From: Candidatus Omnitrophota bacterium
Lineage (GTDB): Bacteria > Omnitrophota > Omnitrophia > Omnitrophales > Aquincolibacteriaceae
Direction: 5' to 3'
Assembly: GCA_022709525.1 (NCBI GenBank)
Contig: JAKLIQ010000002.1
Coordinates: forward strand, 128,984-192,983
DNA: 64,000 nucleotides
Of this stretch, positions 15,166-60,376 are shown piece after piece; position 1 is the stretch's first letter; every line of letters begins with the position of its first letter. The notes beneath the pieces are model-generated. The model saw only the letters and a program-made list of their open reading frames with translations, had not been told where the DNA came from and did not search any database. The position numbers and the translations under genes were made by a program.

Positions 15166-16311
15166 ATGCAGATCTTGGCAACAGCGATCACGGGTTTACT
15201 TTTTTTCCTTCTGGCGGGATGGATCTACCGCAGCGGACGGGCGCTCTCCGAACTCAAACAGGCCCCCGCGTTAAAATTGAAATTGCCGGTATCCCGCACC
15301 GGAAGAGTTTCTGTCCTGATCCCGGCGAAAAATGAAGAAAAAAATATCGCGGATTGCGTCCGGCCTTTTCTCTCCCAGCTGCACGAGGGCGATGAGATCC
15401 TCGTGATCAATAACTACTCGGAAGACAGGACGGAAACGATCCTCCGGGAACTTGGCGCCGATGAGATCCTGCCCGACGGTTCCGGACGGAATTTAAAATT
15501 CCGCTACCTTAACACCCCCCAAACCCCTGAAGGATGGACCGGCAAGAATTTTGCGCTCCATCTCGGAACCCAGTGCGCCTCGGGCGACTGGTTTTTTTTC
15601 ACCGACGCCGACACCCGCCATGAACCCGGAAGCGTTGATACCGCTCTCGCGTTCGCGGAAGCCCGTCAGCTCGATCTTTTGACGCTCTTGCCGCGCTGCA
15701 TCACGGGAAGTTTCTGGGAAGATGTGATCCAACCTTGCGCGATGGGCTATATGGGGCTCTGGTTCCCGATCCGCAAGGTCAATGACCCCGCATCCAAAGC
15801 GTATTTCGGGAACGGACAATACCTGCTCATCCGCGCGGACCATTACCGAAAGATCGGCGGGCATGCCGCGGTCAAGGACGCTTTTCTTGAAGATTTTGCG
15901 CTCATGAAAAAAACGAAGGAGACCGGGGCGTGGGGCATGTGCGCATTCGGCATGGAGATCTACGGCACACGCATGTACGATTCTTTTGATGCCCTTTGGC
16001 GCGGCTGGCGCCGCATCTTTCTGCATGCGTTCGAGCAAAAACCGTGGCCCATCCTGCGACGCGCGCTAAGCGTTTTTTTGTTTTCGCTTTTTCCCGCGTT
16101 AGCCCTGCTCACCCTGCCGCACGGCCTTTCGCTTTCGCTTTGCCTTTTGATCCTTGCGATCGTTTTCGCAACAGCCGCCAAAACGCACGCGATCGTCAAA
16201 GCCAAGAAACGCTACGCGCTCCTTCACCCACTGGCGGCGCTCGTCTTCACGGGGATCCTTCTCGACGCTTTCCGCATGGCCATTCTCAAGCACCCGACCC
16301 GCTGGCGTTAA
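15166..16311 (+). CDS. Family 2 glycosyltransferase (membrane-anchored, GT-A fold)
   Basis: An N-terminal TM helix is followed by motifs VLIPAKNEE and DADT and a C-terminal polytopic region. The gene converges on the lipid operon. Confidence 0.7.
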   Translation: MQILATAITGLLFFLLAGWIYRSGRALSELKQAPALKLKLPVSRTGRVSVLIPAKNEEKNIADCVRPFLSQLHEGDEILVINNYSEDRTETILRELGADEILPDGSGRNLKFRYLNTPQTPEGWTGKNFALHLGTQCASGDWFFFTDADTRHEPGSVDTALAFAEARQLDLLTLLPRCITGSFWEDVIQPCAMGYMGLWFPIRKVNDPASKAYFGNGQYLLIRADHYRKIGGHAAVKDAFLEDFALMKKTKETGAWGMCAFGMEIYGTRMYDSFDALWRGWRRIFLHAFEQKPWPILRRALSVFLFSLFPALALLTLPHGLSLSLCLLILAIVFATAAKTHAIVKAKKRYALLHPLAALVFTGILLDAFRMAILKHPTRWR

Positions 16312-16370
16312 AAAAAGCGTTACCCCGGATCCGGCCCAAGGTAACGCTTTTCCTGAAGAAAAATTTCTTG

Positions 16371-16697
16371 TTAGTTTTTTTTCTGCTTTTTGGAAGTCTG
16401 AGAAGAGGGCTTGGTGCTTTTTTTATCCGAAGATTTCTTTTTGGATGTCTTCGTGGTCTTTTTGGACTTTTCTTTTTTCTTCTTCCCTTTTTCTTTCTGA
16501 TCGGCTGTGACCGCTTCCGCGGTGCTGGCGACATTACTGGCCTGCCCCGTGTTCCCCGGAGCGCTTTCATTCGACGCGGCAGACTCCGGCTCCACCGGCA
16601 GCATTGGATCAAGCTCCTGAGCGATATTGGCGCGAACGCCGGGAACGCCTAAAACCAAGAAGGTCAAGAGGGTAAAAAAAACTGTCATTTTTTTCAC
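16371..16697 (-). CDS. Secreted low-complexity Lys/Ser/Thr-rich protein (hypothetical)
   Basis: A signal peptide reads MKKMTVFFTLLTFLVLGVPGVRA. The rest of the protein is a K/S/T-rich tail. Confidence 0.4.
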   Translation of the reverse strand: MKKMTVFFTLLTFLVLGVPGVRANIAQELDPMLPVEPESAASNESAPGNTGQASNVASTAEAVTADQKEKGKKKKEKSKKTTKTSKKKSSDKKSTKPSSQTSKKQKKN

Positions 16698-16725
16698 GAA
16701 AATATCTCCTTAAAATAAAATTTGA

Positions 16726-17823
16726 TCAGATCGCCAGGTAACCGACTTTTACGGCATAACGGACAAGGGTCTTGAGGAACGCATCATCCGTTTTCGGCAT
16801 GGAGATCCCGGTCCCGCGCAGGATCTCGCGGGTGTTCGTCGTGTCAAAAGTCAGCTGTCCGTTCAAATAACCCAGATAGGGCTCCATCATCGAAAAAACC
16901 ATCTGCTCCTGCGGGTTCATTTTACTCTTGGAAAAATGTTTGGGATCGATGACCTCGATCGGAGGAACGGCCGAATAATCTTCTTTTCCCATTTTCAGGA
17001 GCATCCCGATCGAAGGCGGTTTTGGCGCCACAACGTGGAAGGCTTTGTTGACGCTCCGAGGGTCTTTTACGATCGCACAAGTGGCCTTGATCACGAAATC
17101 GATGGGAACGATGTTGAAGGTGTTCTCGGGATGGGTCGGGATCTTCGAGAGAACCCCGTGCGCGAAGAGTTTGATAAAAGGGTAGATGACATTGAATTCC
17201 GAGACCTCGCCGGTCTCGGAATGGCCGACCACGATGCTGGGCCGGATGATCGTGACCGGAAGACCTTTCGCCATCGCTTCGCGCACTTTGGTCTCGGCCT
17301 TATACTTACTTGACTCGTAATAATTCGCGAAAACAGGTTTGGCAGGCAGCTCATCTTCCTTGGAGCAATGATCCCAGACGCTACCGGCTACGAAGGCCGT
17401 GCTGAAATAAATAAAACGCTCGAGCTTTCCCTTCTTTTTGAGGTCCCAGGCGAGTTCCAGCGCGTGCTCGGTACCGCCCACATTGATCTGCTGGCACTCT
17501 TTTTCCGTCCCGTTCAAGGCAGTCAACGCGGCGATGTGATAAAAAGTCTTGCATTCGTGCTCGAGGTATTCTAGATCAGCTTTCTTGATACCGAATTTAT
17601 GATGCGTGACATCGCCTTCGATCACATGAATGCGGGATCCAAGATGAGAATCAAGACCGATCGAGGTGAGGATCTTTTCGACGCGCTCCTTGTGGGTCAT
17701 CCGGTTCTTGGCGCGCGCCAGAACAGCGATCTCGACGTCAGTGGTCTTGAGGAGTTCCTTGACGAGCTCCTGCCCTAAGACGCCGGTCGCGCCGGTCATA
17801 AAGATCAAATTACGTGCCATCAT
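16726..17823 (-). CDS. Thioester reductase / fatty acyl reductase-type SDR (NAD_binding_4, male-sterility family)
   Basis: The nucleotide-binding motif FMTGATGVLG and catalytic motif YYESSKYKAE (YxxxK) are present. The gene overlaps the KS gene by 14 nt. Confidence 0.75.
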   Translation of the reverse strand: MMARNLIFMTGATGVLGQELVKELLKTTDVEIAVLARAKNRMTHKERVEKILTSIGLDSHLGSRIHVIEGDVTHHKFGIKKADLEYLEHECKTFYHIAALTALNGTEKECQQINVGGTEHALELAWDLKKKGKLERFIYFSTAFVAGSVWDHCSKEDELPAKPVFANYYESSKYKAETKVREAMAKGLPVTIIRPSIVVGHSETGEVSEFNVIYPFIKLFAHGVLSKIPTHPENTFNIVPIDFVIKATCAIVKDPRSVNKAFHVVAPKPPSIGMLLKMGKEDYSAVPPIEVIDPKHFSKSKMNPQEQMVFSMMEPYLGYLNGQLTFDTTNTREILRGTGISMPKTDDAFLKTLVRYAVKVGYLAI

Positions 17824-19111
17824 ATCTCCTTAAAGCCAAACAAATATTCTGCCCGCCGAAGCCGAAGGAATTTGACAATGCTATCTGAACATTGGACCGT
17901 CTTGCCGTGTTCGGCACATAGTCCAGATCGCATTCGGGATCCGGTTCCTCATAATTGATCGTCGGCGGGATGATCGAATCGCGCATCGACAGAAAACAAA
18001 TGATCGCTTCCACAACGCCGGCGGCGGCGATCATGTGCCCGAGCATGGATTTCGTCGAACTGACGGGCACCTTGCGGGCATATTCCCCCATGACTTTTTT
18101 GATCGCGAGGGTCTCCAGGGAATCGTTCACCGCCGTGGAAGTTCCGTGAGCATTGATATAATCAATATTTTGCGGGCCGATGCAAGCTTTTTCCATCGCG
18201 ATCTCGATCGCGCGGGCCGCTCCCCGGACCTCTGGGTCCATATCCGTAAGCCGGTAGGCATCGGCGGTCGAGCCGTAACCGACGATCTCGCCGTGGATCG
18301 CGGCATGGCGTTTTCGCGCATGCTCCAGTTCTTCCAGGATCAAAGCTCCGGCGCCTTCGGAGATCACGAAACCGTCCCTTTTTTTATCGAATGGCCGCGA
18401 AGCCTTCTCGGGTTCATGGTTCCTCGTCGAGATCGCGGTCAAAAGACTGAATCCCGCAACCCCCATCGGATAGATCATGGAATGAGAACCACCGGTCATG
18501 ACAATATCCGCGTCCCCGCGGCGGATCCACTCGAAGGCCTCCCCGATCGCTTGAGAAGACGCGGCACAGGCGGTAAGGCAATTGGAAACGGGGCCCCGGA
18601 TATCAAAAAGCCGCGTCAGATGGGTCACGGTCATGAAGGGCTGGCTTTCCAATTCCCGGAGCGCGCTCATGTTCCGGAGCGCGCCCTCCACATACCGGGC
18701 CTTATCCACGATCTCGGTGGCGCCTTCGGTAAAAGAGGGTACCAGGGTCTTGATGAACGGATCAAAATCGATCCCGCTGTCACCCGCCCCAAAATAGATC
18801 CCGAAGCGGTTCGGATTGAGCGAGAGGGGCTCGAGCATGGCGTTCTTATACGCTTCGGCCGCGGCCTGCAGCGCGAAAAAAGTACTGCGGCCGGCGCAGC
18901 CAAGCGGCGGATTCCGCTCAAGCCATTTTTCGAATGAGAATCCTTTGACTTCGCCCGCAATGCGCGTCGGAAAACGGCTCGCGTCAAAAAGCGTGATGGG
19001 GCCGATCCCCGACTTGCCTTGCGTCAAGCGGAGCCAGGTATCCCGCACGGAATTCCCGAGAGGCGTCACAGCGCCCATACCGGTCACAACCACTCTGCGT
19101 TCTTTTAACAT
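17810..19111 (-). CDS. Beta-ketoacyl-ACP synthase (KS-alpha, FabF/type II PKS-like, catalytically intact)
   Basis: The catalytic cysteine motif TACAASSQAIGE and the histidine motifs NAHGTSTAVND and SMLGHMIAAAG are all present. Confidence 0.9.
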   Translation of the reverse strand: MLKERRVVVTGMGAVTPLGNSVRDTWLRLTQGKSGIGPITLFDASRFPTRIAGEVKGFSFEKWLERNPPLGCAGRSTFFALQAAAEAYKNAMLEPLSLNPNRFGIYFGAGDSGIDFDPFIKTLVPSFTEGATEIVDKARYVEGALRNMSALRELESQPFMTVTHLTRLFDIRGPVSNCLTACAASSQAIGEAFEWIRRGDADIVMTGGSHSMIYPMGVAGFSLLTAISTRNHEPEKASRPFDKKRDGFVISEGAGALILEELEHARKRHAAIHGEIVGYGSTADAYRLTDMDPEVRGAARAIEIAMEKACIGPQNIDYINAHGTSTAVNDSLETLAIKKVMGEYARKVPVSSTKSMLGHMIAAAGVVEAIICFLSMRDSIIPPTINYEEPDPECDLDYVPNTARRSNVQIALSNSFGFGGQNICLALRRYDGT

Positions 19112-20388
19112 TTTTTGAACACCAAGGATGCGTTTTGGCCGCCGAAGCCGAACGTGTTGAGCAGCGCTATTTTGACATCGCAGGACTTTGCCTTATCTTT
19201 GACAAAAGGCAGCGGGCACTCGGGATCCGGGTCTTTAAGATTGGTCACGGGCGGGATCTGCCCTTTTTTCGTCGCGAGAACCGTGATCACGGCTTCCGCG
19301 CTACCCGTACCGTAAACCAAATTCCCCGTCACCGGCTTTACTGCCGTCACATGAAGCTTTTTAAAACTCGAAGAATAAAACGAGTGGACCGCAAGCGATT
19401 CCTGGACGTCTTCCTGCGGAATGCCGCTCCCGTTCGCCATCAAAAGATCCACGTCGGACGGCTCAAGCGCGGCGTCCTCAAGGGCCCTGCGGATCGCGAC
19501 GCGCTTACCCGCAAAGTCATCGGGGTCGCGCGGATCATAATTAAAATCCGAAGAAGACCCGTAACCCGCGACCTCCGCATAGACCGAAGCCCCCCGTTTT
19601 TTTGCGCTCTCCAGTGATTCCAGGACAAGGATGCCGGCGCCTTCGCCCAAAACGATCCCGTCGTGTTTTCGATCGAACGGCGTATAGGCTTTTTCAGGCG
19701 ACGTTTCTTTGGCGGAAAGAAACCCGAGGAGTTGAAAGCGGGAAACGCCCATGGCGTTCAATTTAGAATCCGTACCGCCGGCCAGCATGATATCGGCGTC
19801 ACCGCGTTCGATCACGCGGTACGCTTCCCCGATCGCCTGAGTCGCCGCGGCCGAAGAGGTCGTGATCGTATTATTGGGGCCGCGCAGCTGATTGGCCACG
19901 GAAATATGACAAGCTGGCATGTTCGGAAGATACTTCAGGAACCATAGCGGAAAAAGCGACCGGATCCCGTCTTGGCCGAACTTGGTCATGGAAAAATGCC
20001 CGTTCTCGTCCAGTCCGTTCCGAAATCCCACTCCCACTTCATCGAGATCGTTATTGATGATACCGGTGCCGAGGATCACGCCGATGCGGGTTGGATCGTA
20101 ATTTTCTTTGGAAAGTTTCGCGTCCCTAAGCGCCAGACAGCTCGCCGACACCGCCATTTGGATCTCGCGCGACATCAATTTGATGGACTTGCGGTTCTCG
20201 ATGAATTGCTTAGGATCGAATTGCGGGAGCATCCCCGCGTATTTGAAGGAAGGTCCCATCCGAAGCGGCTCGGCGCTGCGAACAGCGGAACGGCCGTGAA
20301 CGGCGGCATCCCAATAAGGTTCCCAACCGATCCCGCAGGCGGTAATGACGCCGAATCCCGTGACGACAACGCGACGCTTGGAGGTCAT
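19105..20388 (-). CDS. KS-beta / chain-length-factor-like ketosynthase paralog (catalytic Cys and both His replaced)
   Basis: The protein has a KS fold, but the active-site motifs are altered. TTSSAAATQAIGE carries Cys to Ser, LMANGSGIPQ carries His to Asn, and VTGNLVYGTGSAE carries His to Asn. It overlaps the KS-alpha gene by 7 nt. Confidence 0.8.
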   Translation of the reverse strand: MTSKRRVVVTGFGVITACGIGWEPYWDAAVHGRSAVRSAEPLRMGPSFKYAGMLPQFDPKQFIENRKSIKLMSREIQMAVSASCLALRDAKLSKENYDPTRIGVILGTGIINNDLDEVGVGFRNGLDENGHFSMTKFGQDGIRSLFPLWFLKYLPNMPACHISVANQLRGPNNTITTSSAAATQAIGEAYRVIERGDADIMLAGGTDSKLNAMGVSRFQLLGFLSAKETSPEKAYTPFDRKHDGIVLGEGAGILVLESLESAKKRGASVYAEVAGYGSSSDFNYDPRDPDDFAGKRVAIRRALEDAALEPSDVDLLMANGSGIPQEDVQESLAVHSFYSSSFKKLHVTAVKPVTGNLVYGTGSAEAVITVLATKKGQIPPVTNLKDPDPECPLPFVKDKAKSCDVKIALLNTFGFGGQNASLVFKKC

Positions 20389-20822
20389 GAGGATTGAACG
20401 ACCTTTTCGCGGACTTTGAAATGATCCATGAAAGCGTCATGAAAGGTAACGGATTTTTTTTGCGAAGAAGAGAGCCCGTCGACGGCCATTAAAAGAAGTT
20501 TTGCGCGCGCCACCGGGCCTTCCGAACAAGTAATCGTGGCTTCAAGCCATCCGCCTTCAGACCCGAGACTTTCCGACCACGCCTCAACCTGAAGAGGTGT
20601 TCCGGGCTTTGGAACGCTCGTCACGGTAGCGCTTTCGATCTTGGCGAAGATGAGATCTTTTTGATAGTCGCTTTCCGCGCCGACCAAAAGCCCGCCCGTT
20701 TGGGCCATCATTTCGATGAAAAGGACCTCCGAGCTGTAGGGGGCCTGCGGGACTTTAGAGGATGCGGTCGCCTTTTTGCCGCGCTGGATCGAATGGACTT
20801 TTTCAAGAAGAAGCCAGCGCAT
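20385..20822 (-). CDS. Hotdog-fold FabZ/FabA-like protein lacking the catalytic His (probable non-catalytic dehydratase partner)
   Basis: A helix motif EMMAQTGGLLVG is present. There is no HxxGxP His motif. Confidence 0.5.
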   Translation of the reverse strand: MRWLLLEKVHSIQRGKKATASSKVPQAPYSSEVLFIEMMAQTGGLLVGAESDYQKDLIFAKIESATVTSVPKPGTPLQVEAWSESLGSEGGWLEATITCSEGPVARAKLLLMAVDGLSSSQKKSVTFHDAFMDHFKVREKVVQSS

Positions 20823-20823
20823 A

Positions 20824-21207
20824 TCATCTCCAGATCATGGCCTGCGCGCCGACAAGATCGCCGCTCCGGAAAAAGTGCCCTTCGCCGCGATAAAACTTCC
20901 GCGTCCGGCCTGCGCGCCATTCCATTTCAAAATGATCCCCCGCGCGCTTCTTGATCCTCATCCCCTGGAAACCTTCGAGGCCCATCCAGGATTCCCCGCA
21001 AGCCTTAAAGAACGCCTCCTTAGCCGTAAAAAGTTCCGCGAATTCCTGGAGTGAAAGTCGCTTGAACGAACGGCGCTCGGAGGGATTGAGGAAGCGTTCG
21101 CGAACATAGTCTTTATGCCGGGAAAGAAACTCTTTAACGCGGCCGCGGGATATGAGATCGACGCCGACGCCGCGAAGCGCGGTGGTTTTTTGTTTTACGA
21201 GCAGCAT
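20824..21207 (-). CDS. AcpS-type 4'-phosphopantetheinyl transferase (cluster-associated second copy)
   Basis: A 127-aa protein with motifs GVGVDLI and FTAKEAFFKA. The canonical acpS is at 59996..60376. Confidence 0.7.
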   Translation of the reverse strand: MLLVKQKTTALRGVGVDLISRGRVKEFLSRHKDYVRERFLNPSERRSFKRLSLQEFAELFTAKEAFFKACGESWMGLEGFQGMRIKKRAGDHFEMEWRAGRTRKFYRGEGHFFRSGDLVGAQAMIWR

Positions 21208-21608
21208 TTATCGGAGCAGGAATTCTTGCCCAAGCGGTCGGTCAGATAACGGAGAAGCATCTTGACCGTGAAACAATCGGCCAGCTTTGTGATCTGAGGG
21301 TCTTTTTTGAATTCATCAAGCTCAAGATAAGGAAGTTTTGTCCGAAGCTCCGTGAGGCCCTCAGCTGTAACCACGCCCTCTTTGACGAAACGTTCGTCAT
21401 TGAGGAGATGGCTCGGGAAGAGATCGCCGGCCGGGATCTTGAGATCGAAGGCCTTTTCGAGACGAAAGACGATGTCGATAAAATCAATGGATTCGGCCCC
21501 CAGATCCCGCTTCAGGGAAGCTTCCGGGGTGACCTCGGATTCATCGACGCCGAGCGCTCCGGCGAGTGTTTGCTGCACTTTCGCAAAAAGTTCTTTCTCC
21601 ATGATCAT
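21195..21608 (-). CDS. Acyl carrier protein with ~55-aa C-terminal extension ending in Cys-rich CSDKCCS
   Basis: The phosphopantetheine attachment motif DLGAESIDFID is present. A good SD (AGGAAGGA) lies upstream. Confidence 0.75.
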   Translation of the reverse strand: MIMEKELFAKVQQTLAGALGVDESEVTPEASLKRDLGAESIDFIDIVFRLEKAFDLKIPAGDLFPSHLLNDERFVKEGVVTAEGLTELRTKLPYLELDEFKKDPQITKLADCFTVKMLLRYLTDRLGKNSCSDKCCS

Positions 21609-21630
21609 TCTTTCGTCCTTCCTAAGTTGT

Positions 21631-22038
21631 CTATGACAATGGTGATGGCTGAGGATTTTTAACTTTGGCCAGCGTCAGTTTGGCCGACACGGCAACTTCG
21701 CCGTGATAATACAACTTTGCGTCCCAGGTCGTCTCTGCGTCCGTTCCCTGCACAAGCGTCAGGCGGCTTTCCCAATCATCGCCCGGCCTGAGGTATTTCG
21801 TGAACCGGGTGGCCCGTATTTGTTTTAAGAAATAATGCTGCCCTGCACCGCCCTTTAAGGAATCCAAATAACGTTCGGCGGTCTGTTTCAGCATTTCAAG
21901 CGCCAGAACTCCCGGCAGCACCGGAAATCCCGGAAAATGATCTTGGAAGAACTCCGAGTCTTCGGGGATGCGGCCGCAAGCCGTGATCCCCTCACCTTCC
22001 TTGGCCCAAAGTACCTTCTCGATCGCGAGTTTTGTCAT
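21631..22038 (-). CDS. FabZ-like beta-hydroxyacyl-ACP dehydratase (hotdog, catalytic His present)
   Basis: The active-site motif reads FFQDHFPGFPVLPGVLALEML. Confidence 0.8.
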   Translation of the reverse strand: MTKLAIEKVLWAKEGEGITACGRIPEDSEFFQDHFPGFPVLPGVLALEMLKQTAERYLDSLKGGAGQHYFLKQIRATRFTKYLRPGDDWESRLTLVQGTDAETTWDAKLYYHGEVAVSAKLTLAKVKNPQPSPLS

Positions 22039-22042
22039 GATC

Positions 22043-22723
22043 TCATTTTTTCTCTAGCACATAGACCCCGTTCAAAATGCGAAATCCGGCAAGCCAGGTA
22101 TAAAAATTTTTAAAGGAAGCCACTTTAAAACCTGCCGTCCCAAAAAACCCCCTCCACGCTTCATCCGTGCGAAATTGATGCGGATGAGACATGAACTCCA
22201 CGTTCAAGAGCCGGTCCCGGACGATCGTCCAGAACCGCCCGAGCGCATGATGATAAAGGTCCTCAACGACAATGACTTTGCTGCGCGTTACCCGGCGCAC
22301 TTCTTTAAAAAGCGCTTCCGGGTCCGGGACATGATGAAGCATCGTCACAAGGATCGTCACATCAAAACTTTGATCCGGGAACGGGATCCGGGATCCGTCA
22401 TAGAGCATGACCGGGACTTTTTGATACCCGGGTTTTACCACATCCAGCACCAAGGACTCATGTCCGCGCTTGCGTAACGGCTCGGCATAAAACCCCCAGC
22501 CCCCGCCCAAATCCAAAATGCGGGAACCCGGAGAAAACTCTTTCTCAAAAAACCGTACGATATTTTCGGCGCGCGCCTCAAGGGCGCGATGGACAAAACG
22601 GCTTACAATCCCATCCAGCGCCAGGCGCTGGAAACCTTGCAGGCTTTTTTTGATTGAGTTCACGATGCTGGTCGTTCTGTTTTTGAGCGGAGAATTATAG
22701 CATAGGGCGTCTTTTTGCCCCAA
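22043..22723 (-). CDS. Class I SAM-dependent methyltransferase
   Basis: Motif I reads ILDLGGGWG. An acidic residue follows the beta2 strand (VLDVV). Confidence 0.7.
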   Translation of the reverse strand: MGQKDALCYNSPLKNRTTSIVNSIKKSLQGFQRLALDGIVSRFVHRALEARAENIVRFFEKEFSPGSRILDLGGGWGFYAEPLRKRGHESLVLDVVKPGYQKVPVMLYDGSRIPFPDQSFDVTILVTMLHHVPDPEALFKEVRRVTRSKVIVVEDLYHHALGRFWTIVRDRLLNVEFMSHPHQFRTDEAWRGFFGTAGFKVASFKNFYTWLAGFRILNGVYVLEKK

Positions 22724-22842
22724 GAATCTTTTTTGATGCCAACCTCCGTCCCCGGTTTATCCTTTTTCCTTCCGATTTCATTTGATATCTGCTATCTTAC
22801 CCACCATCCTGGCTTTTGTTTTCATATCATTAATGGCTGCCA

Positions 22843-22889
22843 GGATGACCCCAATTTCAACTTCATTAAAATTGAAAGGTATTGGGACC
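22843..22889 (+). promoter_or_regulatory. Copy C of a conserved ~48-nt element ending exactly at the fabL-like ATG
   Basis: Read as GGATGACCCCAATTTCAACTTCATTAAAATTGAAAGGTATTGGGACC, followed directly by ATG. See findings for the three-copy comparison. Confidence 0.6.
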
Positions 22890-23648
22890 ATGACGAATCC
22901 GCTGAAAGGCAAAGTCGCTCTCATTACAGGGGCTTCCCGGGGCATCGGACGAGCCATCGCCCACCGCTTGGCCGAAGACGGTGTTCATATTGCGGTCAAT
23001 TATCTTCAGAATGAAGCGGCCGCGAAAAAGACCGTTGAAGAGCTCCAGGCCAAGGGCGTCAAAGCCGAGGCCTTCCAGGCGAATGTCGGTGATCTCGATA
23101 CTCACAATCCCCTGCTTGAAAATGTCCTCAAAACCTTCGGAACGCTGGATATCCTGATCCACAACGCGGCGCTCGGCGCTTTCAAGCCTGTTCATCGCCT
23201 TAAGATGAACCAGTGGGATCTTTCCATGGATATCAACGCTAAAGCGTTCCTGGCGCTTACTCAAAAAGCGCTTCCGATCATGGAAGCGAAAAAGGAAGGC
23301 ATCATCATCGCTCTCTCAAGTCTGGGCGCGCACCATTTTATCCCCAACTACGGTGCTATCGGGATCTCCAAAGCCGCGATCGAAACCACGGTCCGCTATC
23401 TCGGCGTGGAATTAATGCCGAAGGGCATCAGGGTGAACGCGGTTTCAGGCGGGCTCGTCGATACGGATGCGTTGAAATCATTCCCGTTTTTTGACGCTTT
23501 TAAGGAAGAGGTTTTAAAGCGGACTCCCGCCGGAAGGATCGGAAAACCCGAGGATATGGCCCGCGTGGTCGCGTTCCTTTGCTCCCCGGAATCGTCCTGG
23601 ATCGTCGGCCAAACCCTCATCGCCGACGGCGGACTTTCCCTCATCTAA
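22890..23648 (+). CDS. fabL: FabL/FabI-type enoyl-ACP reductase (SDR with Y-x6-K)
   Basis: The nucleotide-binding motif GASRGIGRA is present. IPNYGAIGISKAAIETTVRYLG resembles FabI [22 protein letters not shown]. The start was chosen at the ATG that has the conserved upstream element. Confidence 0.75.
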   Translation: MTNPLKGKVALITGASRGIGRAIAHRLAEDGVHIAVNYLQNEAAAKKTVEELQAKGVKAEAFQANVGDLDTHNPLLENVLKTFGTLDILIHNAALGAFKPVHRLKMNQWDLSMDINAKAFLALTQKALPIMEAKKEGIIIALSSLGAHHFIPNYGAIGISKAAIETTVRYLGVELMPKGIRVNAVSGGLVDTDALKSFPFFDAFKEEVLKRTPAGRIGKPEDMARVVAFLCSPESSWIVGQTLIADGGLSLI

Positions 23649-23658
23649 AAAGACCGGC

Positions 23659-23850
23659 TTAATTCCCCGGCTTCGGCTTGCACTCTTTGCTTTGGCAGCA
23701 GCATTGGCCGATCAACTCTTTAATGATGATCACAGCGCCGAGAACCGTCAAAGCGATCGCGCCCCATGCGACTTTCCACCAGGCGAAAACGATCACAAGC
23801 GCGCCGATAAGGATGCCGCAGCAACAGCATGGTTTTTTAGCTTCTTCCAT
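23659..23850 (-). CDS. Small membrane protein with CCCC and CCC cysteine clusters (hypothetical)
   Basis: The 63-aa product reads MEEAKKPCCCCGILIGALVIVFAWW...QCCCQSKECKPKPGN. A strong SD (AAAAGGAGGG) lies upstream. Confidence 0.5.
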   Translation of the reverse strand: MEEAKKPCCCCGILIGALVIVFAWWKVAWGAIALTVLGAVIIIKELIGQCCCQSKECKPKPGN

Positions 23851-23861
23851 AATCCCTCCTT

Positions 23862-24071
23862 TTAGCTGGTTGTGATGCTCCCCGGGGCGGGACTGCCGGG
23901 AATATAATCCGCCGTATCAAAACCTACTTGTCTGCCTTTTGCTTCTCCTTTTGAATCTGTATGCCAATAACCGGCGCCGCCCGAAAAACGGACGCATCCC
24001 GGAAAAAAAATAATGAAAAATAACGCGCACAAAAAAGCTATCCCGCGAAATAAATGACCCATGTTATCCAT
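23862..24071 (-). CDS. Small secreted/membrane-anchored protein (hypothetical)
   Basis: A signal-like N-terminus is present (FLCALFFIIFFPGC). Confidence 0.3.
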   Translation of the reverse strand: MDNMGHLFRGIAFLCALFFIIFFPGCVRFSGGAGYWHTDSKGEAKGRQVGFDTADYIPGSPAPGSITTS

Positions 24072-25638
24072 GTTTTCTACTCCCTTGGGCGACCCCGAGG
24101 CTCATGATCAAGAAAACCCCCATCACCGCGAACGGGAACATCCATCCTCCTTTCCTGAAAAAAGTATAGGAAGTCAGAAGCGGAAGGTCCAGCGTCTTTT
24201 GCCCAAAAACAAAAATGGCCTCGCCTTTCTGATCCGTCACGGTCCCCAGGATCTCCCCGCGATGGGAAATAAAGGCGGAGACGCCCGTATTGGCCGAACG
24301 CACTACCGCGACCCCGTTCTCCACGGCGCGGAAGATCGAGGCCTGAAGATGCTGGAACGGAGCGCCGGTATGCCCAAACCAGGCGTCATTGGTGATCACA
24401 ACGATAAATTTCGCGCCGCGATCCGCCAAGAATCTCGCAAGATCTGAAAAAATATCCTCAAAACAGATCAGGACCCCGAACGGCCATTCCTCCCGTCCCC
24501 ACCGGAAGATCACCGAATCGACTCCCGCGCTGAAATCACCCACCCCAAGCGCGTCCGCGATAGGCGTCAACCAGCCCAAAATGAATTTGAGCGGAACATA
24601 TTCTCCAAACGGCACAAGCCGTAATTTGTCGTAATATTTTTGAAAAGCACCGTCTTTTTCCAAAAGGTATGCGCTGTTGTAAACCTCCTGCTCGCTGACC
24701 CAACGAAGCCCGCCGATCAAGAGAGGGGTTTGGACTTCCTGCGCGAGACGGGAGATCTGTTCCGCCTGAAGGTCTCTGTTGAAGTAACCCGGAAAAGCCG
24801 CTTCCGGCCAAATGATGAGATCTGATTGTTCCATCGCGGCAAGCTGGGTCAAGCGGTCATAGATCTCGAGTATTTTTTCTTTGGCCATGACAGCCCATTT
24901 GACGGATTGCGGGATATTCCCCTGGAGGATCGAAACCCGAAGGTATTCTTGGGGCCGGGCCGGCTGCCCGAGCGTTATTTTCCCGTAGCCCAAAAGACCC
25001 GCAAGGGTCAGAACCGCGGCCAAAATAAAACCCAAAACTATGCGGCGGTTCTTATGCTCCGCGAAGGCATAAAAAAAAGAAACGTTAACAAATGCGATCA
25101 CAAATCCAAGCCCGTAGGCCCCGAAAAGATTCGCGAACTGGATAAGAGGAACATAAGCGGATTGGGAATACGCGAGGAGATTCCACCCGAACCCGAAGAC
25201 CGGCATTTCGGAACGGAAGATCTCGGAAAACGTCCATGCCAGGCTGATCCAAAGGGCTTTAAAAATAACCGACCGTTTCGATCTCATTCCGCGGTGAACG
25301 AACCAGGCGAATATCATAAAATAAAAAGACTCCATCACTGTGACCATGATCCATCCCGGAGCCGAAACGTGAGTGAGCCAATGCATGGAAAAACCAAAAA
25401 AAGCGATACCGGCGATCAACCCATAACCCAAGGACTGCGAAAGATCATGCGCGCGATGAATGGCTGCCAGAAGCGGTATGAAAGCGACCCATGCGAGGAA
25501 TCCCCAACCGGGGGACGGATAACAGACCGCGAGCAAAATACCGGAACATGCGGCTAACAACTTCGGAGAAAGGCGCAGGGCGCGCGCGAACTTCTTCTTG
25601 GATTTTGCGGATAATTCGTGTTGGGAATTAAGACTCAT
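24064..25638 (-). CDS. lnt: Apolipoprotein N-acyltransferase
   Basis: A polytopic N-terminus is followed by a CN-hydrolase domain ([18 protein letters not shown]). The start was trimmed to MSLNSQ so the gene does not run through the secA 3' end. Confidence 0.8.
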
Positions 25639-28312
25639 TGACACCACAACATTTTTTATATTTTTTCCCGCTGCCGCAGGGACAGGGATCATTGCGGCCG
25701 ACTTTCTCGTGGGCGCGTTTGATAGGCGTCGGAGCCTGATCATCGGGAGCTTCGTTGCGCGGCGAAAAAGGCGACGGAGCGTTCATACCGCGCGGAAGTT
25801 TCGCGGAAGGCGCCGGCTTCGATTCCGGAAGAACCGCTTCGGGATGAAGATATTGTGTTTTGGATTCTTCGACCGGATTGGCCAGCTTTGTTTCACGAAC
25901 CGCCTGAACGCGGAAGAGAAGTTCCACAGCCTCTTCCTTGACGCTATCGGTCATCTGATCGAACATATCGAATGCTTCACGTTTGTATTCCACAAGCGGG
26001 TCACGCTGGCCGTAAGCGCGTAAGCCGATCCCCTCCCGCAGATTGTCGAGGGCGTAAAGATGTTCTTTCCACTTCGTATCGATCACCTGAAGCAGGATGA
26101 AACGCACCAGATACTGCGTGCGCTCCGGGCCGAATTCCCGTTCGCGCAACTCAAGCTGCTGGGCGGCTCTTTCTTCCAGCGCCTCCAGCAAAGCGTCCAT
26201 ATTATCGAGATTCTTTTCAACGGCCTCGCGGAACCCTCCGCCGAATTTTTCGCTTAATGCCGTAATGAGCCCTTCGGGGTCTTTATCCTCTTCGCGAATA
26301 TCGGGATTAATGTAAGTCAGGACCAAGTTCTCGATCACATTCTCGATCATTTGAAGCACGTGTTTTTTTAGTTCTTCGGGCGCTCCTTTTAAGACCAGAT
26401 CGCGCTCACCGTAGATCAGTTCGCGCTGGCGGTTCATGACATCGTCATATTCAAGCAGGTGTTTGCGGATCTCAAAGTTGTGGGCTTCCACGCGCTTCTG
26501 CGCGGTTTCCATCGCGCGGCTCACGAGCGGGTGCTGGATCTCATCACCCTCCTGCATCCCGAGACGTTGCATCATGGTCGAAATGCGGTCTGAGCCGAAA
26601 AGCCGCATGAGCTCGTCTTCAAGCGCAATAAAAAATTTCGAAGAACCGGGATCGCCTTGGCGCCCGCAACGGCCTCGCAACTGGTTATCGATGCGACGCG
26701 CCTCATGGCGCTCGGTGCCGATCACGGCAAGCCCGCCTTTTTCAGCCACGCCGGGGCCAAGCACAATATCCGTCCCGCGGCCGGCCATATTGGTCGCGAT
26801 CGTCACGATGCCGGGCTGCCCTGCCTGCGCCACGATCTCGGCTTCTTTTTCATGATACTTTGCGTTCAGTACCACGTGCGGCAAATTGATCTTCTGGAGC
26901 ATGCGGCTTAAACGTTCGGATTTTTCGATCGAGATCGTACCGACCAGTACCGGCCTTCCTTTTTTGTGCTCTTCGACGACCTCTCGCACCACCGCGTCGA
27001 ATTTTTCTTTTTCAGTCCGGTAAACACAATCCGCGGAATCAATACGGACACATGGGCGATTCGGCGGCATCACCACCACATCCAGCTTGTAGATCTTATC
27101 GAATTCTACCGCTTCGGTCGCGGCCGTACCGGTCATGCCGGCGAGTTTTTTATACATACGGAAATAATTCTGGAAGGTCACGGTCGCAAGCGTCTGGTTC
27201 TCGCGGCGGATCTCAACCCCCTCTTTGGCTTCAAGCGCCTGATGAAGCCCATCGGAGAAACGCCGGCCCGGCATGAGACGGCCGGTAAATTCGTCCACGA
27301 TCAGGATCTCCCCGTCTTTGACAACATAATCGACGTCGCGTTCAAAAAATTCCTTCGCGCGTAAAGCCGTCATCACATGATGCCGCTCGGCGACAGTGTC
27401 GGAATCGTGCATGTTCTCGACGCCCATGAATTTGGCAGCTTTCGATTCTCCCTGCTCGGTCATGCGGATCGTTTTGGCTTTTTCATCCGCGATGTAATCG
27501 CATTCTTTCTTGATCTCCTCGAGCTTGGCTTTCCACTCGGGATCGACCTCTTCTTTGACGATGCGGTGACCTTTAAGCGAAAGCGCGGCGCGCTCGGCCT
27601 TGTAATATTTGTCGGTGGAATCTTCGGCGGGACCTGAAATAATGAGCGGCGTGCGGGCTTCATCGATCAGAATGGAGTCGACTTCGTCAACGATCGCGTA
27701 ATGAAGCGGCCGCTGGACGCGCATATCAAGGCTTGTCACCATGTTGTCGCGCAGATAATCAAAGCCGAATTCGTTATTCGTCCCATAAGTGATATCGGAG
27801 GCGTAGGCTTTTTGGCGTTCTTCGTGCGGGATATCGTGCTGGATCACGCCTACTGTGAGCCCCAAAAATTCGTAAATGGGCCCCATCCAATTCCGGTCGC
27901 GGCGAGCGAGGTAGTCGTTGACGGTCACAAGGTGCACGCCTTTGCCTTCAAGGGCGTTGAGATAGATCGGCAGCGTGGCCACAAGCGTTTTTCCTTCACC
28001 GGTGGACATTTCGGCGATCTTCCCTTTATGGAGCACGATGCCGCCCAGGATCTGGACGTCGAAATGACGCATTTTTGTTGTGCGTTTCGAAGCTTCGCGC
28101 ACTACGGCAAAAGTTTCCGGAAGGATATCATCGAGCGTCGCGCCTTCCACGAGGCGTTTTTTGAATTCGCCTGTTTTGGCCCGGAGCTCTTCATCAGAAA
28201 GTTTTTGAATGGCGGGTTCAAACGCGTTCACCTGCGCCACGATCGGCCAAAGGAGCTTGAGTGTCCGGGTATTCTGCGTTCCGAATATTTTTTGAAGGAT
28301 ATAACCGAGCAT
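25628..28312 (-). CDS. secA: Preprotein translocase ATPase SecA
   Basis: DEAD-like motor motifs are present. The C-terminal zinc finger reads [14 protein letters not shown]. Confidence 0.95.
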
Positions 28313-28326
28313 GGATGATCCGTTCG

Positions 28327-29437
28327 CTAATTCTTTGTCACATTCTGTTTAAGATATGCCTCGATAAAAGGGTCGAGATCCCCGTCCATCACCGCATCCC
28401 CGTTCGAAGTTTCGACATCCGTGCGGTGGTCTTTGACCATCGTATAAGGATGAAACACATAAGAGCGGATCTGGGAACCCCATTCGATCTTCTTTTTGGG
28501 CCCGTATTGCGACGCAAGCGCCGCTTCTTTTTCCTGGCGCAATCTTTCATAAAGTCGCGCCTTTAAGACCTTCATCGCTACCTGCTTATTCTGCGCCTGA
28601 GAACGTTCATTTTGGCATTGCGTCACGATGCCTGTCGCGAGGTGCGTGATACGGATCGCGCTGGAGGTTTTATTCACATGTTGCCCGCCCGCCCCGCCGG
28701 CCCGATAGGCGTCGATCCGGATATCAGCTTCCTTGATCTCGATCTCGGGAATGTCGTCCACTTCCGCGATCACGTCCGCGGACGCGAACGATGTGTGGCG
28801 GCGTTTATTGGCGTCAAAAGGCGAGATGCGCACGAGACGGTGAACGCCCGATTCGGCTTTCAGATAACCATAAGCGTAACCCCCCTGCACGATAAAAGTC
28901 GCGCTTTTAACCCCGGCTTCTTCCCCCTGCATCAGATCGACCATTTGAATGTTATAGCTATGCTGTTCGGCCCACCGCGTATACATACGCAAGAGCATCT
29001 GCGCCCAGTCGCAGGCCTCGGTGCCGCCAGCGCCGGCATTAATACTGACGATCGCATTGTTGGAATCAAAAGGTCCGGATAGAAGGCGCTGGAATTCCAG
29101 GAGCTCGACTTCGCGGCCTAATTTGGCGACATCCTGCTCAAGCTCTTTGAGGGATTCTTCCTGATTCTCATCCACCATTGCGAGGAGCTCAAGAAGGTCA
29201 TTGAGGGATTGATGGGCTTTCTGCCAGGGATCGACGATCTTTTTGAGGGTTTTCAGCCGTTCAACGGTGGCCTGGGCGTCCTGCTGACGGTCCCAGAAAT
29301 CAGCGCGAGCCATCTTTTCGTTGATGCCGGCGATCTCGCGCTCTTGACCTTCAAGGTCAAAGATACCCCCTTATCTCTTGGAGCTTTTCCTTGAGATCCT
29401 TAAGACGGTCCTGGAGTGCGGCGATTTGTTCTTTCAT
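28327..29437 (-). CDS. prfB: Peptide chain release factor 2, with programmed +1 ribosomal frameshift
   Basis: The upstream mini-[29 protein letters not shown] ends at CTT TGA C (29362..29356). It is preceded by the SD-like motif AGGGGG. The +1 frame continues DLEGQER...MARADFWD... and contains the GGQ motif ([11 protein letters not shown]) and SPF. Confidence 0.9.
29356..29362 (-). other. prfB +1 frameshift site CUU UGA C
   Basis: The sequence GGGGGTATCTTTGAC was read on the minus strand. Confidence 0.85.
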
Positions 29438-33833: not shown

Positions 33834-35081
33834 TTGCTCCGAAAAACGGGGAACATGAATAATCCTGTCCGCTCTCCTAAAAACACGCTGCTTGCCAGGA
33901 TCGAAGCGCTGAACTGTCGGATCCAAGAGGCCAAAAAACGCGACCTCTATCCTTACATGCATTCCTCCGACGCTGTCGACGGCGTTCACATCACGATCCG
34001 TGGCAAGCCGATGCTCCAATTCTCCTCCTATTCCTACCTCGATCTCCTGGGACACCCCAAGATCAATGCGGCGGCCAAAAAGGCCCTTGAAGAATTCGGA
34101 ACAGGCACTCACGGCGTCCGGTTCCTGACCGGGACCACACGCATCCACCAGGAGCTTGAAAAAAAGATCGCGTCATTTAAAAAAACCGAGGAGGCGATCG
34201 CGCTTTCCACGGGTTACGGCGCCAATTGCGGGACTATTTCGGCGTTGCTGGGTCGAAACGACACCGTGATCTCCGATAAGGTCAATCACGCGAGCATAGT
34301 GGACGGGTGCATCTTATCGCGCGCGCAATTCGTCCGCTTCGAACATAATGACATGGCCTCGCTTGAAGAATCGCTCGAAAAAGCGCCGAAAAAAGGGGTG
34401 AAACTTGTGGTCGCTGATGCTGTCTTCAGTATGGACGGCGACATTATTAATCTTCCGCAAGTAATCCGTCTCTGCCGCAAATTCAAGGCCCTTCTTATGA
34501 TCGACGAGGCGCATTCGCTTGGGGTCCTCGGAAAAAAAGGTACCGGGATCGAGGAACATTTCGGGATCGACCCGGCCGAAGGCTTGATCGATATCAAGAT
34601 GGGAACTTTGAGCAAAACGATCCCTTCGATCGGCGGTTATATCGCCGGCAATTCGAAGCTTGTTAATTTCCTAAAACACTCGATCCGTCCTTTTATCTTT
34701 TCCGCTTCCCTGCCGCCGGCCTCCGCCGCGGCCGCCAAAGCATCATTTGAGGTCATCGAGGAAGAAACATGGCGTATTAAAAAACTCCACGAAAATATGC
34801 ATTATTTCCTTAAGACGCTCCGAATGAACGGTTTTACCACGCTCCAAAGTCAAAGCCCCATTGTCCCGATCATTATCGGCGACGACGCAAAGGCCTTGGA
34901 GATGACCCGCCTCGCGAGACAAGAAGGGATCTTTATTGTGCCGATCCTTCCCCCTGCCGTGCCGCCTCATACAACCCGCATCCGGACAACGGTAACCGCG
35001 GGCCATTCCCTTCAAGAGATCGAGCGCGCCATCAATGCCTTTGCAAGGATCGCAAGGTCGCTCGGCATCATTAAACCGTAA
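33834..35081 (+). CDS. Alpha-oxoamine synthase (PLP), serine palmitoyltransferase-like
   Basis: The sequence has a fold-type I AOS fold. NHASIVDG is present. The PLP lysine motif GTLSKTIPSIGGYIAG is of the S-K type seen in bacterial SPT rather than the G-K type of BioF/Kbl. Confidence 0.7.
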   Translation: MLRKTGNMNNPVRSPKNTLLARIEALNCRIQEAKKRDLYPYMHSSDAVDGVHITIRGKPMLQFSSYSYLDLLGHPKINAAAKKALEEFGTGTHGVRFLTGTTRIHQELEKKIASFKKTEEAIALSTGYGANCGTISALLGRNDTVISDKVNHASIVDGCILSRAQFVRFEHNDMASLEESLEKAPKKGVKLVVADAVFSMDGDIINLPQVIRLCRKFKALLMIDEAHSLGVLGKKGTGIEEHFGIDPAEGLIDIKMGTLSKTIPSIGGYIAGNSKLVNFLKHSIRPFIFSASLPPASAAAAKASFEVIEEETWRIKKLHENMHYFLKTLRMNGFTTLQSQSPIVPIIIGDDAKALEMTRLARQEGIFIVPILPPAVPPHTTRIRTTVTAGHSLQEIERAINAFARIARSLGIIKP

Positions 35082-35113: not shown

Positions 35114-35890
35114 ATGATAAAAAGCTACGTTTTAATTACCGGCGCTTCCGAAGGGCTCGGCCGCGAATTAGCCAGGATCTTTTTCCGGAATGGGCACTCT
35201 CTGGTCTTGGTCGCCCGCAACCAGGCCCGACTCGAAGAACTTGCCAAGGCACTGAACCCCAGCGATCTTTCCATGATCAAAATCCTTACCGCTGACCTAT
35301 CGACCCCTGACGCTGCCGATCAATTGAAAACAACTCTCGATAAGCTTGGTCTGGAAATAGGGGTCTTGGTCAATAACGCGGGATCCGGCCTTCATGGTTT
35401 TTTTTATGAAACGGATTGGAAAGCCACGGAAGCCATGCTGAATCTTAACATGGTCTCTCTCACGCGGCTGACGCGGCTCCTTCTTCCAGGCATGATCCGC
35501 CGGGGCCGGGGAAAGATCCTGAATATCGCGTCCACTGCCGCCTTCCAGCCCGGACCTTTTATGGCCGCTTATTTCGCCTCCAAAGCTTGTGTTTTATCCC
35601 TGACAGAGGCTCTTGCGGAGGAGCTTGCAGGGACCGGCGTTACCGTCACTGCCTTTTGCCCGGGACCCATACGAACTCAATTCCAGACAAGATCCCATAC
35701 CGAAAATATCCGGGAAAACGCTTTTGCCATGGACGCCCAAGACGCCGCGCGGGCCGCTTACCGGGGGCTGCTTCGATCCAAACGCCTTGTGGTCCCGGGC
35801 TGGGTGAATAAGCTTTTGGTTTTCCTGGTCCGGCTTTTTCCCCGCCGGATCGTGGTCCGGGCGGCCCGTTTTTTCGAGGAAAAGTGTTGA
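35114..35890 (+). CDS. Classical SDR oxidoreductase (3-ketodihydrosphingosine reductase-like)
   Basis: The nucleotide-binding motif TGASEGLGRE and catalytic motif YFASK (YxxxK) are present. It lies directly downstream of the AOS. Confidence 0.7.
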   Translation: MIKSYVLITGASEGLGRELARIFFRNGHSLVLVARNQARLEELAKALNPSDLSMIKILTADLSTPDAADQLKTTLDKLGLEIGVLVNNAGSGLHGFFYETDWKATEAMLNLNMVSLTRLTRLLLPGMIRRGRGKILNIASTAAFQPGPFMAAYFASKACVLSLTEALAEELAGTGVTVTAFCPGPIRTQFQTRSHTENIRENAFAMDAQDAARAAYRGLLRSKRLVVPGWVNKLLVFLVRLFPRRIVVRAARFFEEKC

Positions 35891-59995: not shown

Positions 59996-60376
59996 TTATG
60001 GGATAACGATCACCACAGTCGCGATGGCGTATTCCCGTTCATGCGCGACTGATAACTCGACCTGGGACTTTGCCGGAAGACGCAATCGCTTCCGGCTTTC
60101 CGCATCCAGCGCGATATAGGGCTTCCCCGTCGCCTCGCGCCGGACCTCGATCCCCGAAAGTCTTTGCCCCTGTTTCGGGCGTATTTTAAGAGCTTTCAGG
60201 ACGGCTTCTTTGGCCGCGAAACGCGCCGCATAATGCTCGAATTTCATGCGCTTCGAACCGCAGTAATCCTGTTCCGCCGCGCTAAAGACACGCTGAAGGA
60301 ACTTGTTGCCAGACCTCGCGATCATCTCTTCCATCCGCCGGACCTTGACGAGGTCGATACCCTGAAGGATCTTCAC
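59996..60376 (-). CDS. acpS: Holo-ACP synthase (housekeeping AcpS)
   Basis: Motifs GIDLVKV and FAAKEAVLKAL are present in a 126-aa product. Confidence 0.8.
   Translation of the reverse strand: MKILQGIDLVKVRRMEEMIARSGNKFLQRVFSAAEQDYCGSKRMKFEHYAARFAAKEAVLKALKIRPKQGQRLSGIEVRREATGKPYIALDAESRKRLRLPAKSQVELSVAHEREYAIATVVIVIP

Follow-up and report, generated by a model that had tools for sequence, protein, structure and literature searches.

A type II fatty-acid-synthase-like gene cluster conserved across Omnitrophota and its proposed role in the synthesis of an envelope lipid

The subject of this report is a gene cluster of Candidatus Omnitrophota bacterium, found at positions 15166–23648 of a 64,000-nucleotide (nt) stretch of DNA (GenBank assembly GCA_022709525.1, contig JAKLIQ010000002.1, positions 128,984 to 192,983 of the forward strand). 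The whole stretch was analysed and is called the window below. The cluster encodes a ketosynthase (KS) and a catalytically dead KS partner resembling a chain-length factor (CLF), a pair of dehydratase-like proteins, an unusual acyl carrier protein (ACP) with a phosphopantetheinyl transferase (PPTase), an enoyl reductase (ER), a thioester reductase (TR), a methyltransferase (MT) and a membrane glycosyltransferase of family GT2. From its gene content, active-site states, synteny and co-occurrence, the cluster is real, is more than a chance assemblage, and is more general than was held in the first-pass annotation of this DNA. The reading we favour, with a confidence that lies somewhat above even, is that it forms a dedicated type II fatty acid synthase (FAS)-like module, separate from the housekeeping FAS, which makes a specialised envelope lipid of Omnitrophota by way of a CLF heterodimer, reductive release, glycosylation and export.

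Genes were identified by Pfam and NCBIfam profile searches. All eleven open reading frames (ORFs) first proposed for the cluster were confirmed in place, and the domain identities first given to its proteins were borne out. For comparison, gene contexts and 80 loci were retrieved from GTDB species genomes, where at least 600 stretches fitted the search patterns; the CLF–KS pair is present in about 50 of these 80 loci. Close relatives of the window are designated tier 1 and Planctomycetota-type loci tier 2, and the counts given for the tiers use only loci with enough flanking DNA. The reference for aryl-polyene (APE) synthesis was the APE cluster of Escherichia coli CFT073 (ApeA–ApeR) together with the fab genes of that strain, compared by BLASTP, tblastn, hhalign and a neighbour-joining tree.

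Gene content and active sites of the cluster

The KS gene (17810–19111, minus strand) encodes a FabF-like protein with an intact Cys-His-His triad, which matches the FabF profile TIGR03150 with 480 bits and the FabF subfamily NF005589 with 470 bits against a cut-off of 387. Directly upstream of it, and overlapping it by 7 nt, is the gene for the dead partner (19105–20388, minus strand; 427 amino acids), which has the triad Ser/Asn/Asn and matches FabF with 354 bits. Both proteins are FabF-derived by NCBIfam profiles. Against Bacillus subtilis FabF the KS scores 376 bits. Identity to E. coli FabF is 40.6% for the KS and 36.2% for the CLF, and identity to ApeR and ApeO is 28–34% (33–34% for the KS). 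In the neighbour-joining tree the KS and CLF orthologues form two separate clades, and FabF is closer to both than the Ape ketosynthases are. All KS orthologues have kept Cys-His-His. The CLF clade contains many different degenerate triads, among them Ser-His-His, Val-Cys-His, Ala-Ala-Phe, Glu-Val-Ser and the Cys-Cys-His of locus L081 (position 7401), along with a Cys-His-His in locus L030 (position 3899), and catalytic residues seem to have been lost in steps, and more than once, within this clade. Homologues of the CLF number in the hundreds at 56–90% identity, and all the named ones belong to Candidatus Omnitrophota. Judged by its sequence, the CLF is a paralogue of the KS. By analogy, we infer that the two form a physical heterodimer with malonyl-ACP decarboxylase and elongation activity.

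A second pair is formed by two hotdog-fold proteins. The FabZ/ApeI-like 3-hydroxyacyl-ACP dehydratase, here called DH1 (21631–22038, minus strand; FabA 44 bits, FabZ 63 bits), carries in alignments both the catalytic His, in the motif HFPGFP, and the catalytic Glu. Its paralogue HD2 (20385–20822, minus strand; FabZ 30 bits) has lost the 11-residue HFPxxP segment and with it the catalytic His, and has kept the glutamate motif E-MAQT. The two are considered paralogues because their families match each other in a profile–profile comparison (hhalign) with 98.7% probability (E 1.5e-16). The HD2 family is rare: a search of 1.84 billion proteins yielded 32 representatives at E<=1e-10. The DH1 family matches E. 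coli ApeI with 95.5% hhalign probability, DH1 homologues carry the Pfam ApeI-like domain, and HD2 matches ApeP with 24% probability. The pattern of a subunit bearing the His and a His-less subunit with E-MAQT is common to DH1/HD2 and ApeI:ApeP, and HD2 is proposed to be the non-catalytic partner of DH1.

The ACP (21195–21608, minus strand; 137 amino acids; serine motif DLGAESID) has a PP-binding domain and falls under the NCBIfam cut-offs for ACPs. It was first described as having a long Cys-rich tail. A Cys-rich C-terminus is indeed present, although it is short and restricted to the window's own clade; the extra length comes mainly from a conserved insert, some 45 residues long, that lies between helix III and helix IV and is kept in both tiers. 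An AlphaFold model (pLDDT 86.5) shows the four canonical helices together with an inserted hairpin and two helices at about residues 64–113, and a fold search with this model found no solved ACP that covers the insert. The matches in that search include mycobacterial MmpL5–AcpM complexes, in which an ACP is bound to an MMPL transporter, and an MMPL gene adjoins the cluster in most relatives.

The PPTase of the cluster (20824–21207, minus strand) is a divergent member of the AcpS type, matching PF01648 with 50 bits and TIGR00516 with 34.7 bits, under the cut-off of 59.8. A second, canonical AcpS of 126 amino acids is encoded at 59996–60376 on the minus strand, between a YdjC-like gene and a helix-turn-helix/bactofilin pair, and matches TIGR00516 with 88 bits (cut-off 60). 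Since this canonical enzyme is present in the same window, the PPTase of the cluster, which is 29% identical to it, is regarded as a private paralogue.

The remaining enzymes would release, reduce and modify the chain. The TR (16726–17823, minus strand) is a stand-alone protein of 365 amino acids that matches NAD_binding_4 with 189 bits and TIGR01746 with 174 bits, and has the motifs GxTGxLG, for NAD(P) binding, and YxxSKxxxE. Its best solved relative is the terminal reductase of MxaA (107 bits), whose product is a primary alcohol, and it is proposed to catalyse a reductive release step. The ER (22782–23648, plus strand) is a FabL-type enoyl-ACP reductase of the short-chain dehydrogenase/reductase (SDR) family, in which the enoyl-reductase motif Y-x6-K can be read; it scores 304 bits with FabL NF005975, against a cut-off of 328, and about 178 bits with FabG. 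Its true start is probably the ATG near 22890, which would give 252 amino acids, as in the orthologues. The MT (22043–22723, minus strand), the first gene of the operon, is a class I S-adenosylmethionine (SAM) methyltransferase with the motif I LDLGGGWG. It matches Methyltransf_11 with 55 bits, its best NCBIfam match is far under the cut-off, its PDB matches are weak, and both these and the family matches are generic for class I. The GT2 (15166–16311, plus strand), convergent with the operon, is of the HpnB/CruG/GT21 type (PF00535 69 bits; PF13506 32 bits, above the cut-off; HpnB 136 bits; CruG 121 bits). The protein carries a DxD motif (TDAD) and has a single transmembrane (TM) helix at the N-terminus and several at the C-terminus. 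Its named relatives, HpnB, CruG, HpnI and the ceramide glucosyltransferases of family GT21, use lipid hydroxyls as substrates or are associated with them. No usable solved relative of it was found in a PDB search.

As to the arrangement of these genes, the count of nine on the minus strand stands, but the ninth is a small ORF (16371–16697) for a secreted protein of 108 amino acids with a signal peptide and a Lys/Ser/Thr-rich body. It has no family match in Pfam or NCBIfam, its weak homologues (36–39% identity) occur only in the closest relatives of the window, and its membership in the pathway is doubtful. Overlaps of 4–14 nt had been claimed throughout; they are present at four junctions only (14, 7, 4 and 13 nt), and the other genes are separated by gaps of 1–28 nt. 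The intergenic region between the MT operon and the divergent ER gene (22724–22889) is presumed, from the gene arrangement, to contain a bidirectional promoter site.

Conservation, variants and surrounding genes

The cluster had been called an orphan. It proves instead to be a syntenic chromosomal module that has been kept, at 56–90% identity, across the phylum Omnitrophota. The gene order begins with prfB-secA-lnt-(small lipoprotein)-(aldo-keto reductase), followed by the ER on the opposite strand, and continues MT-DH1-ACP-AcpS-HD2-CLF-KS-TR-(fatty acid desaturase), then the GT2 on the opposite strand, and MMPL-asnS-lolC-lolD. Relatives have additional genes for an aldo-keto reductase (AKR), a fatty acid desaturase and an HpnN-like MMPL protein with a sterol-sensing domain.

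In tier 1 the TR directly follows the KS in all 27 loci, the MT is present in 24 of 24, the GT2 in 20 of 21, the ER, divergent from the operon, in 19 of 21, and the MMPL with the sterol-sensing domain in 11 of 18. The linkage of the TR with the GT2 that was first suggested is backed by this co-occurrence, and the AKR and MMPL of the relatives agree with it. In tier 2 the TR was found after the KS in 0 of 20 loci and the MT in 0 of 17, the GT2 in 5 of 10 and the ER in 6 of 10, and no MMPL of this kind was found. Since the MT is found in every tier-1 locus and no tier-2 locus, it was gained together with the TR.

Tier-2 hosts include uncultured Planctomycetia, some Omnitrophota and Kolteria novifilia. 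These loci retain DH1-ACP-(AcpS)-HD2-CLF-KS, part of them have an adjacent GT2–ER pair, and about half have a FabG-type ketoreductase (KR) inside the cluster. An example from an uncultured member of the Planctomycetia (L046, 4748–16874) combines the core DH1-ACP-AcpS-HD2-CLF-KS with an in-cluster FabG, a GT2 and an ER. In place of the MT and TR it has a hexapeptide acyltransferase, a HAD phosphatase, a class III aminotransferase, a PaaK-like AMP-ligase and an LPG-synthase-like membrane protein. Similar clusters are found in L038, L043 and Kolteria novifilia (L055). This gene content suggests that the sister cluster makes a different product, possibly an acylated amino-sugar or aminolipid. From the comparison of the two tiers, the core is an old cassette of the Planctomycetota–Verrucomicrobiota–Chlamydiota (PVC) group, around which the release and tailoring genes have been swapped.

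The adjacency to lnt, which had also drawn attention, holds as conserved gene order in Omnitrophota. A functional link is unsupported because no lnt homologue is present in any tier-2 locus, and the neighbours in L046 differ (tatC, for example).

Some relatives also have genes for B12-binding radical SAM proteins. A single one is found in L009, L027, L029 and the tier-2 locus L081 (two of these were scanned and have a DUF4070 domain), and there is a partial copy at the contig end of L016. In L087 (15153–20408) and L013 (13855–19246) three paralogous genes of this kind, together with a different GT2, come after the TR. These two loci belong to one Omnitrophota lineage of the anaerobic-digester type, ADurb.Bin292.

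Several features were noted in the DNA beyond the ER. Between the ER and lnt, the minus strand encodes a 63-amino-acid peptide with two TM segments and runs of CCCC and CCC (23659–23850), seen in this window only. Next to it is a 69-amino-acid ORF (23862–24071, minus strand) with a lipoprotein-like N-terminus, a hydrophobic stretch leading to FFPGC, which is conserved beside lnt in many Omnitrophota. The longest ORF for lnt (24064–25743, minus strand) shares 116 nt with the end of secA (25628–28312, minus strand). Because the orthologues of Lnt have 513–527 amino acids and this ORF 559, its start is probably further downstream. In the prfB ORF (28327–29313, minus strand) the match to release factor 2 begins at model position 32, consistent with the usual programmed +1 frameshift near the 5′ end.

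An alpha-oxoamine synthase is encoded at 33834–35081 on the plus strand; its best model is serine palmitoyltransferase (442 bits, cut-off 640), and it scores 411 bits with BioF (cut-off 426). It is directly followed by an SDR (35114–35890, plus strand) that best matches a 'mycolate reductase' (181 bits). The two could be a sphingolipid-type long-chain-base pair some 10 kb from the cluster; at the other loci examined this adjacency was not seen. A relative of the right-hand neighbourhood of the window (L089, 1–7015) encodes a giant protein of more than 6000 amino acids with PAS, HATPase and PEP-utilising domains.

Known systems and competing explanations

No description of this cluster in Omnitrophota or Planctomycetes came up in a literature search, which returned only automated 'ladderane' or 'fatty acid' calls of biosynthetic gene clusters (BGCs) and probable matches recorded as 'ElbD homologues'. 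Every part of the cluster comes from a known enzyme family, and the logic of the pathway has precedents. By analogy, the nearest system in overall logic is the heterocyte glycolipid (hgl) pathway of cyanobacteria, in which a KS with a CLF, a dehydratase (DH), an ER, an ACP and a PPTase produce a long chain, a TR converts it to a fatty alcohol, and a glycosyltransferase and an envelope exporter complete the pathway (PMC11804610). The two were compared by description. In logic the proposed pathway would be a type II analogue of this synthesis; the cyanobacterial system has multidomain synthases of the type I or polyunsaturated-fatty-acid (PUFA)-like kind, HglT and an ABC/TolC-type exporter, and the Omnitrophota cluster has discrete type II proteins, a membrane GT2 and, where present, an MMPL protein. 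There are also parallels, drawn from general knowledge, in two type II systems that make a special chain alongside the housekeeping FAS, rhizobial acpXL-fabZXL-fabF2XL-fabF1XL, for the very-long-chain fatty acid of lipid A, and mycobacterial KasA/B-HadAB/BC-AcpM. In both, the ACP is a dedicated one (with an extension in the case of AcpM), FabF occurs as two paralogues, and the DH is special, either dedicated or heterodimeric. The Omnitrophota cluster differs from them in having neither an LpxXL-type acyltransferase nor mycolate machinery, and release would be reductive.

The product of the TR might have another destination. It could serve as the fatty aldehyde or alcohol for ether lipids, of the alkyl-glycerol type made by myxobacterial ElbD, or for wax-like lipids, while the GT2 and MMPL served another glycoconjugate. 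ElbD, the subject of work by Lorenzen and colleagues in 2014, is reportedly a multidomain protein composed of CoA-ligase, ACP, reductase and AGPAT domains. An ElbD-type ether-lipid synthase was rejected here, since only a stand-alone reductase of 365 amino acids is present. A survey of the Black Sea recorded 'ElbD homologues' in 93 of 267 Omnitrophota metagenome-assembled genomes (MAGs) (PMC11868695), and such matches are what the TR domain would be expected to yield. The reductase is the only domain of ElbD that was found; none of about 30 loci contained a CoA-ligase, an AGPAT domain or a glycerol-linked enzyme. In addition, of all accessory genes the GT2 shows the tightest linkage to the cassette, in tier 1 and tier 2 alike. 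For these reasons we consider an ether or wax lipid unlikely.

The question also arises whether, in Omnitrophota, this cluster serves wholly or in part as the elongation machinery of the housekeeping FAS II, with the TR as a side branch. The KS exceeds the cut-off of the NCBIfam FabF subfamily and is as well conserved as SecA, the cluster stands in a conserved housekeeping neighbourhood, and a second FabF, ACP or enoyl reductase was found neither in the 64-kb window nor in the 10 kb beyond each end. This explanation is nevertheless quite unlikely in view of the canonical AcpS elsewhere in the window and the divergence of the cluster's own PPTase; the atypical ACP, with its 45-residue insert and its scores under the NCBIfam cut-offs; the dead partners of both KS and DH, which are hallmarks of specialised pathways; and the absence of FabD, FabH and FabG from the cluster. 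In tblastn searches no homologues of FabH, FabD or AcpP were found in the window or the 80 related loci. Tier-1 clusters contain no FabG-type ketoreductase, the only match of E. coli FabG there being the ER gene, at 34–37% identity. The presence lists of gene families per Omnitrophota node (Seymour et al., supplementary file 6), in the portion consulted here, include FabD and FabG, and for one node FabH. On sequence grounds the cluster is probably not the housekeeping FAS, and the original proposal of a dedicated FAS-like pathway of type II, with paired KS/CLF and DH proteins and an ACP and PPTase of its own, gains support, in part from the second AcpS.

Several points weigh against the dedicated module. 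The missing second FabF, ACP and enoyl reductase would have been its housekeeping counterparts. The cluster contains no KR and no acyltransferase and must therefore depend on housekeeping enzymes, and these too were not located within the window or the 10 kb on either side. FabL (K10780) was not met in the same portion of supplementary file 6 of Seymour et al. GT2 enzymes with C-terminal TM helices also use polyprenyl phosphates. Finally, the window itself is without the AKR, the desaturase and the MMPL gene, and two aldolase genes occupy the position of the last.

The resemblance to APE clusters, which the first-pass annotation noted, is partial. Both kinds of cluster have a KS/CLF pair, an ApeI-like DH bearing the His with a His-less hotdog partner, an ACP of their own, and genes for an MT, a GT2 and an exporter of the MMPL type. 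The resemblance is confined to the motif pattern of the DH pair and its ApeI-like DH1, and does not extend to the KS and CLF; both are FabF-derived and lie outside ApeR/ApeO, and both clades sit with FabF in the neighbour-joining tree rather than inside the APE clade. Nor did ApeC match the KS or the CLF, and its 240 amino acids compare with 427 for the CLF. No counterparts of ApeJ, ApeB and ApeM were found by BLASTP for the GT2, MT and MMPL. The Omnitrophota cluster further differs from APE clusters in having an ER and a TR, and its tier-1 form has no KR. The absence of an aryl starter module was correctly recognised at first reading: tblastn searches with the CFT073 proteins found no homologues of ApeH, the adenylating enzyme that activates the aryl starter, nor of the thioesterase ApeK, the acyltransferase ApeD or the LolA-like ApeL, in the window or the 80 related loci. 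ApeB and ApeJ homologues were likewise absent from tier-1 and tier-2 loci, apart from one weak ApeJ match to the second, different GT2 of L013. Membership in the APE clusters is ruled out by the FabF-like KS/CLF, the missing ApeH, ApeK, ApeD and ApeL, and the conserved ER.

A polyene product is unlikely because the enoyl reductase, with its Y-x6-K motif, is a conserved member of the cluster. An aryl-polyene or other polyene pigment pathway, that is, a highly reducing type II polyketide synthase with reductive release and a glycosylated polyenal or polyenol resembling a carotenoid glycoside, could draw on the ApeI-like DH1 (95.5% by hhalign), on the echo of APE gene content and on the likeness of the GT2 to CruG. 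We hold it to be very improbable in the face of the ER, the affinity of the KS/CLF to FabF, the full-length CLF and the missing Ape homologues.

In anammox bacteria, FabF2/FabFmut, in which a mutated copy lies upstream of the intact one, has been shown experimentally to be a KS/CLF heterodimer that decarboxylates malonyl-ACP, and the authors of this preprint of May 2026 describe it as the first case of a fatty-acid pathway with a chain-length factor (bioRxiv 10.64898/2026.05.19.726425). Anammox cluster I resembles the Omnitrophota cluster as a PVC type II FAS module with a mutated-triad FabF directly upstream of an intact FabF, and with a dedicated ACP and a FabZ-like DH. The triads differ, being Ser/Asn/Asn or His in Omnitrophota and Val or Thr plus Asn/Glu/Cys in anammox bacteria, and the Omnitrophota cluster has the His-less HD2 and the AcpS, ER, TR, MT and GT2 in addition.

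Going by the names of its molecules and by its date, we take PDB entry 9s5h, chains B and C, to be the anammox heterodimer. The KS scores 290 bits with 9s5h_B and 376 with FabF; the CLF scores 206 and 167 bits with 9s5h_B and 9s5h_C and 279 with FabF. DH1 shows no greater similarity to the chains regarded as amxFabZ than to ordinary FabZ. A shared origin with the anammox CLF is unsupported because the window pair scores higher with FabF than with 9s5h and the CLF triads are varied. Profile searches of the window found neither the radical SAM nor the phytoene-desaturase-like genes of ladderane cluster I. On these two grounds, the lower 9s5h scores and the missing genes, membership in the ladderane clusters was rejected; the systems are related in principle only. 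For Omnitrophota MAGs, BGC calls of the ladderane type are on record, and the B12-radical-SAM genes may explain such antiSMASH calls. That the cluster makes a ladderane-like or otherwise radical-SAM-remodelled lipid, as antiSMASH-type tools label such clusters, is very improbable: the one to three B12-radical-SAM genes by the cassette in L009, L027, L029, L013 and L087 and the FabF/dead-FabF pair, ACP and FabZ shared with the anammox cluster are set against the lack of radical SAM and phytoene-desaturase-like genes in the window and most loci, and against the KS/CLF and DH1 comparisons just described.

Proposed pathway and its implications

A pathway can be outlined for the dedicated module, in which every step, as well as the order of the steps, the heterodimer, the chain length and the product, is deduced from domain homology and gene co-occurrence. 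The private AcpS would first activate the unusual ACP, and malonyl units would be provided by the housekeeping FabD. The KS and its dead paralogue, acting as a heterodimer, would prime synthesis by decarboxylation of malonyl-ACP and elongate the chain, with the CLF setting its length. Keto reduction would be carried out by the housekeeping FabG, dehydration by the DH1/HD2 pair, and reduction of the enoyl intermediate to a saturated chain by the FabL-type ER. The TR would then detach the chain from the ACP in the form of an aldehyde or a primary alcohol, assisted in many relatives by the AKR. Glycosylation of the lipid hydroxyl by the membrane GT2 would follow and, in most relatives, export of the product to the outer membrane by the HpnN-like MMPL protein. 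The MT, and in some relatives the desaturase or a B12-radical-SAM enzyme, may decorate the chain or the head group. We infer, from the same kinds of evidence, the 'methylated' and 'glycolipid' features of the product.

A broader proposal, possible but doubtful, is that in Omnitrophota and, in a variant form, in many uncultured Planctomycetota, the KS/CLF and the novel ACP produce a non-glycerol fatty alcohol glycoside, which is exported by MMPL and is a core component of the outer membrane, and that lineage-specific B12-radical-SAM, desaturase and MT steps give rise to unusual chains. If this is true, it would be the second case of a CLF in fatty-acid synthesis, one that evolved independently and is much more widely distributed, and the product would represent a new class of lipid biomarkers for a ubiquitous uncultured phylum.

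To our knowledge, the Omnitrophota are widespread, mostly ultra-small and uncultured, and we know of nothing that has been learned about their lipids. A module found throughout the phylum between lnt, which acts in lipoprotein maturation, and lolCD, which acts in lipoprotein sorting, predicts a class of envelope lipids that may be sought in enrichments and environmental lipidomes. It would extend the KS/CLF principle in fatty-acid synthesis beyond the anammox bacteria. The discrete KS/CLF, the DH pair, the insert-bearing ACP and the alcohol-type TR could also aid in the engineering of fatty alcohols of set chain length.

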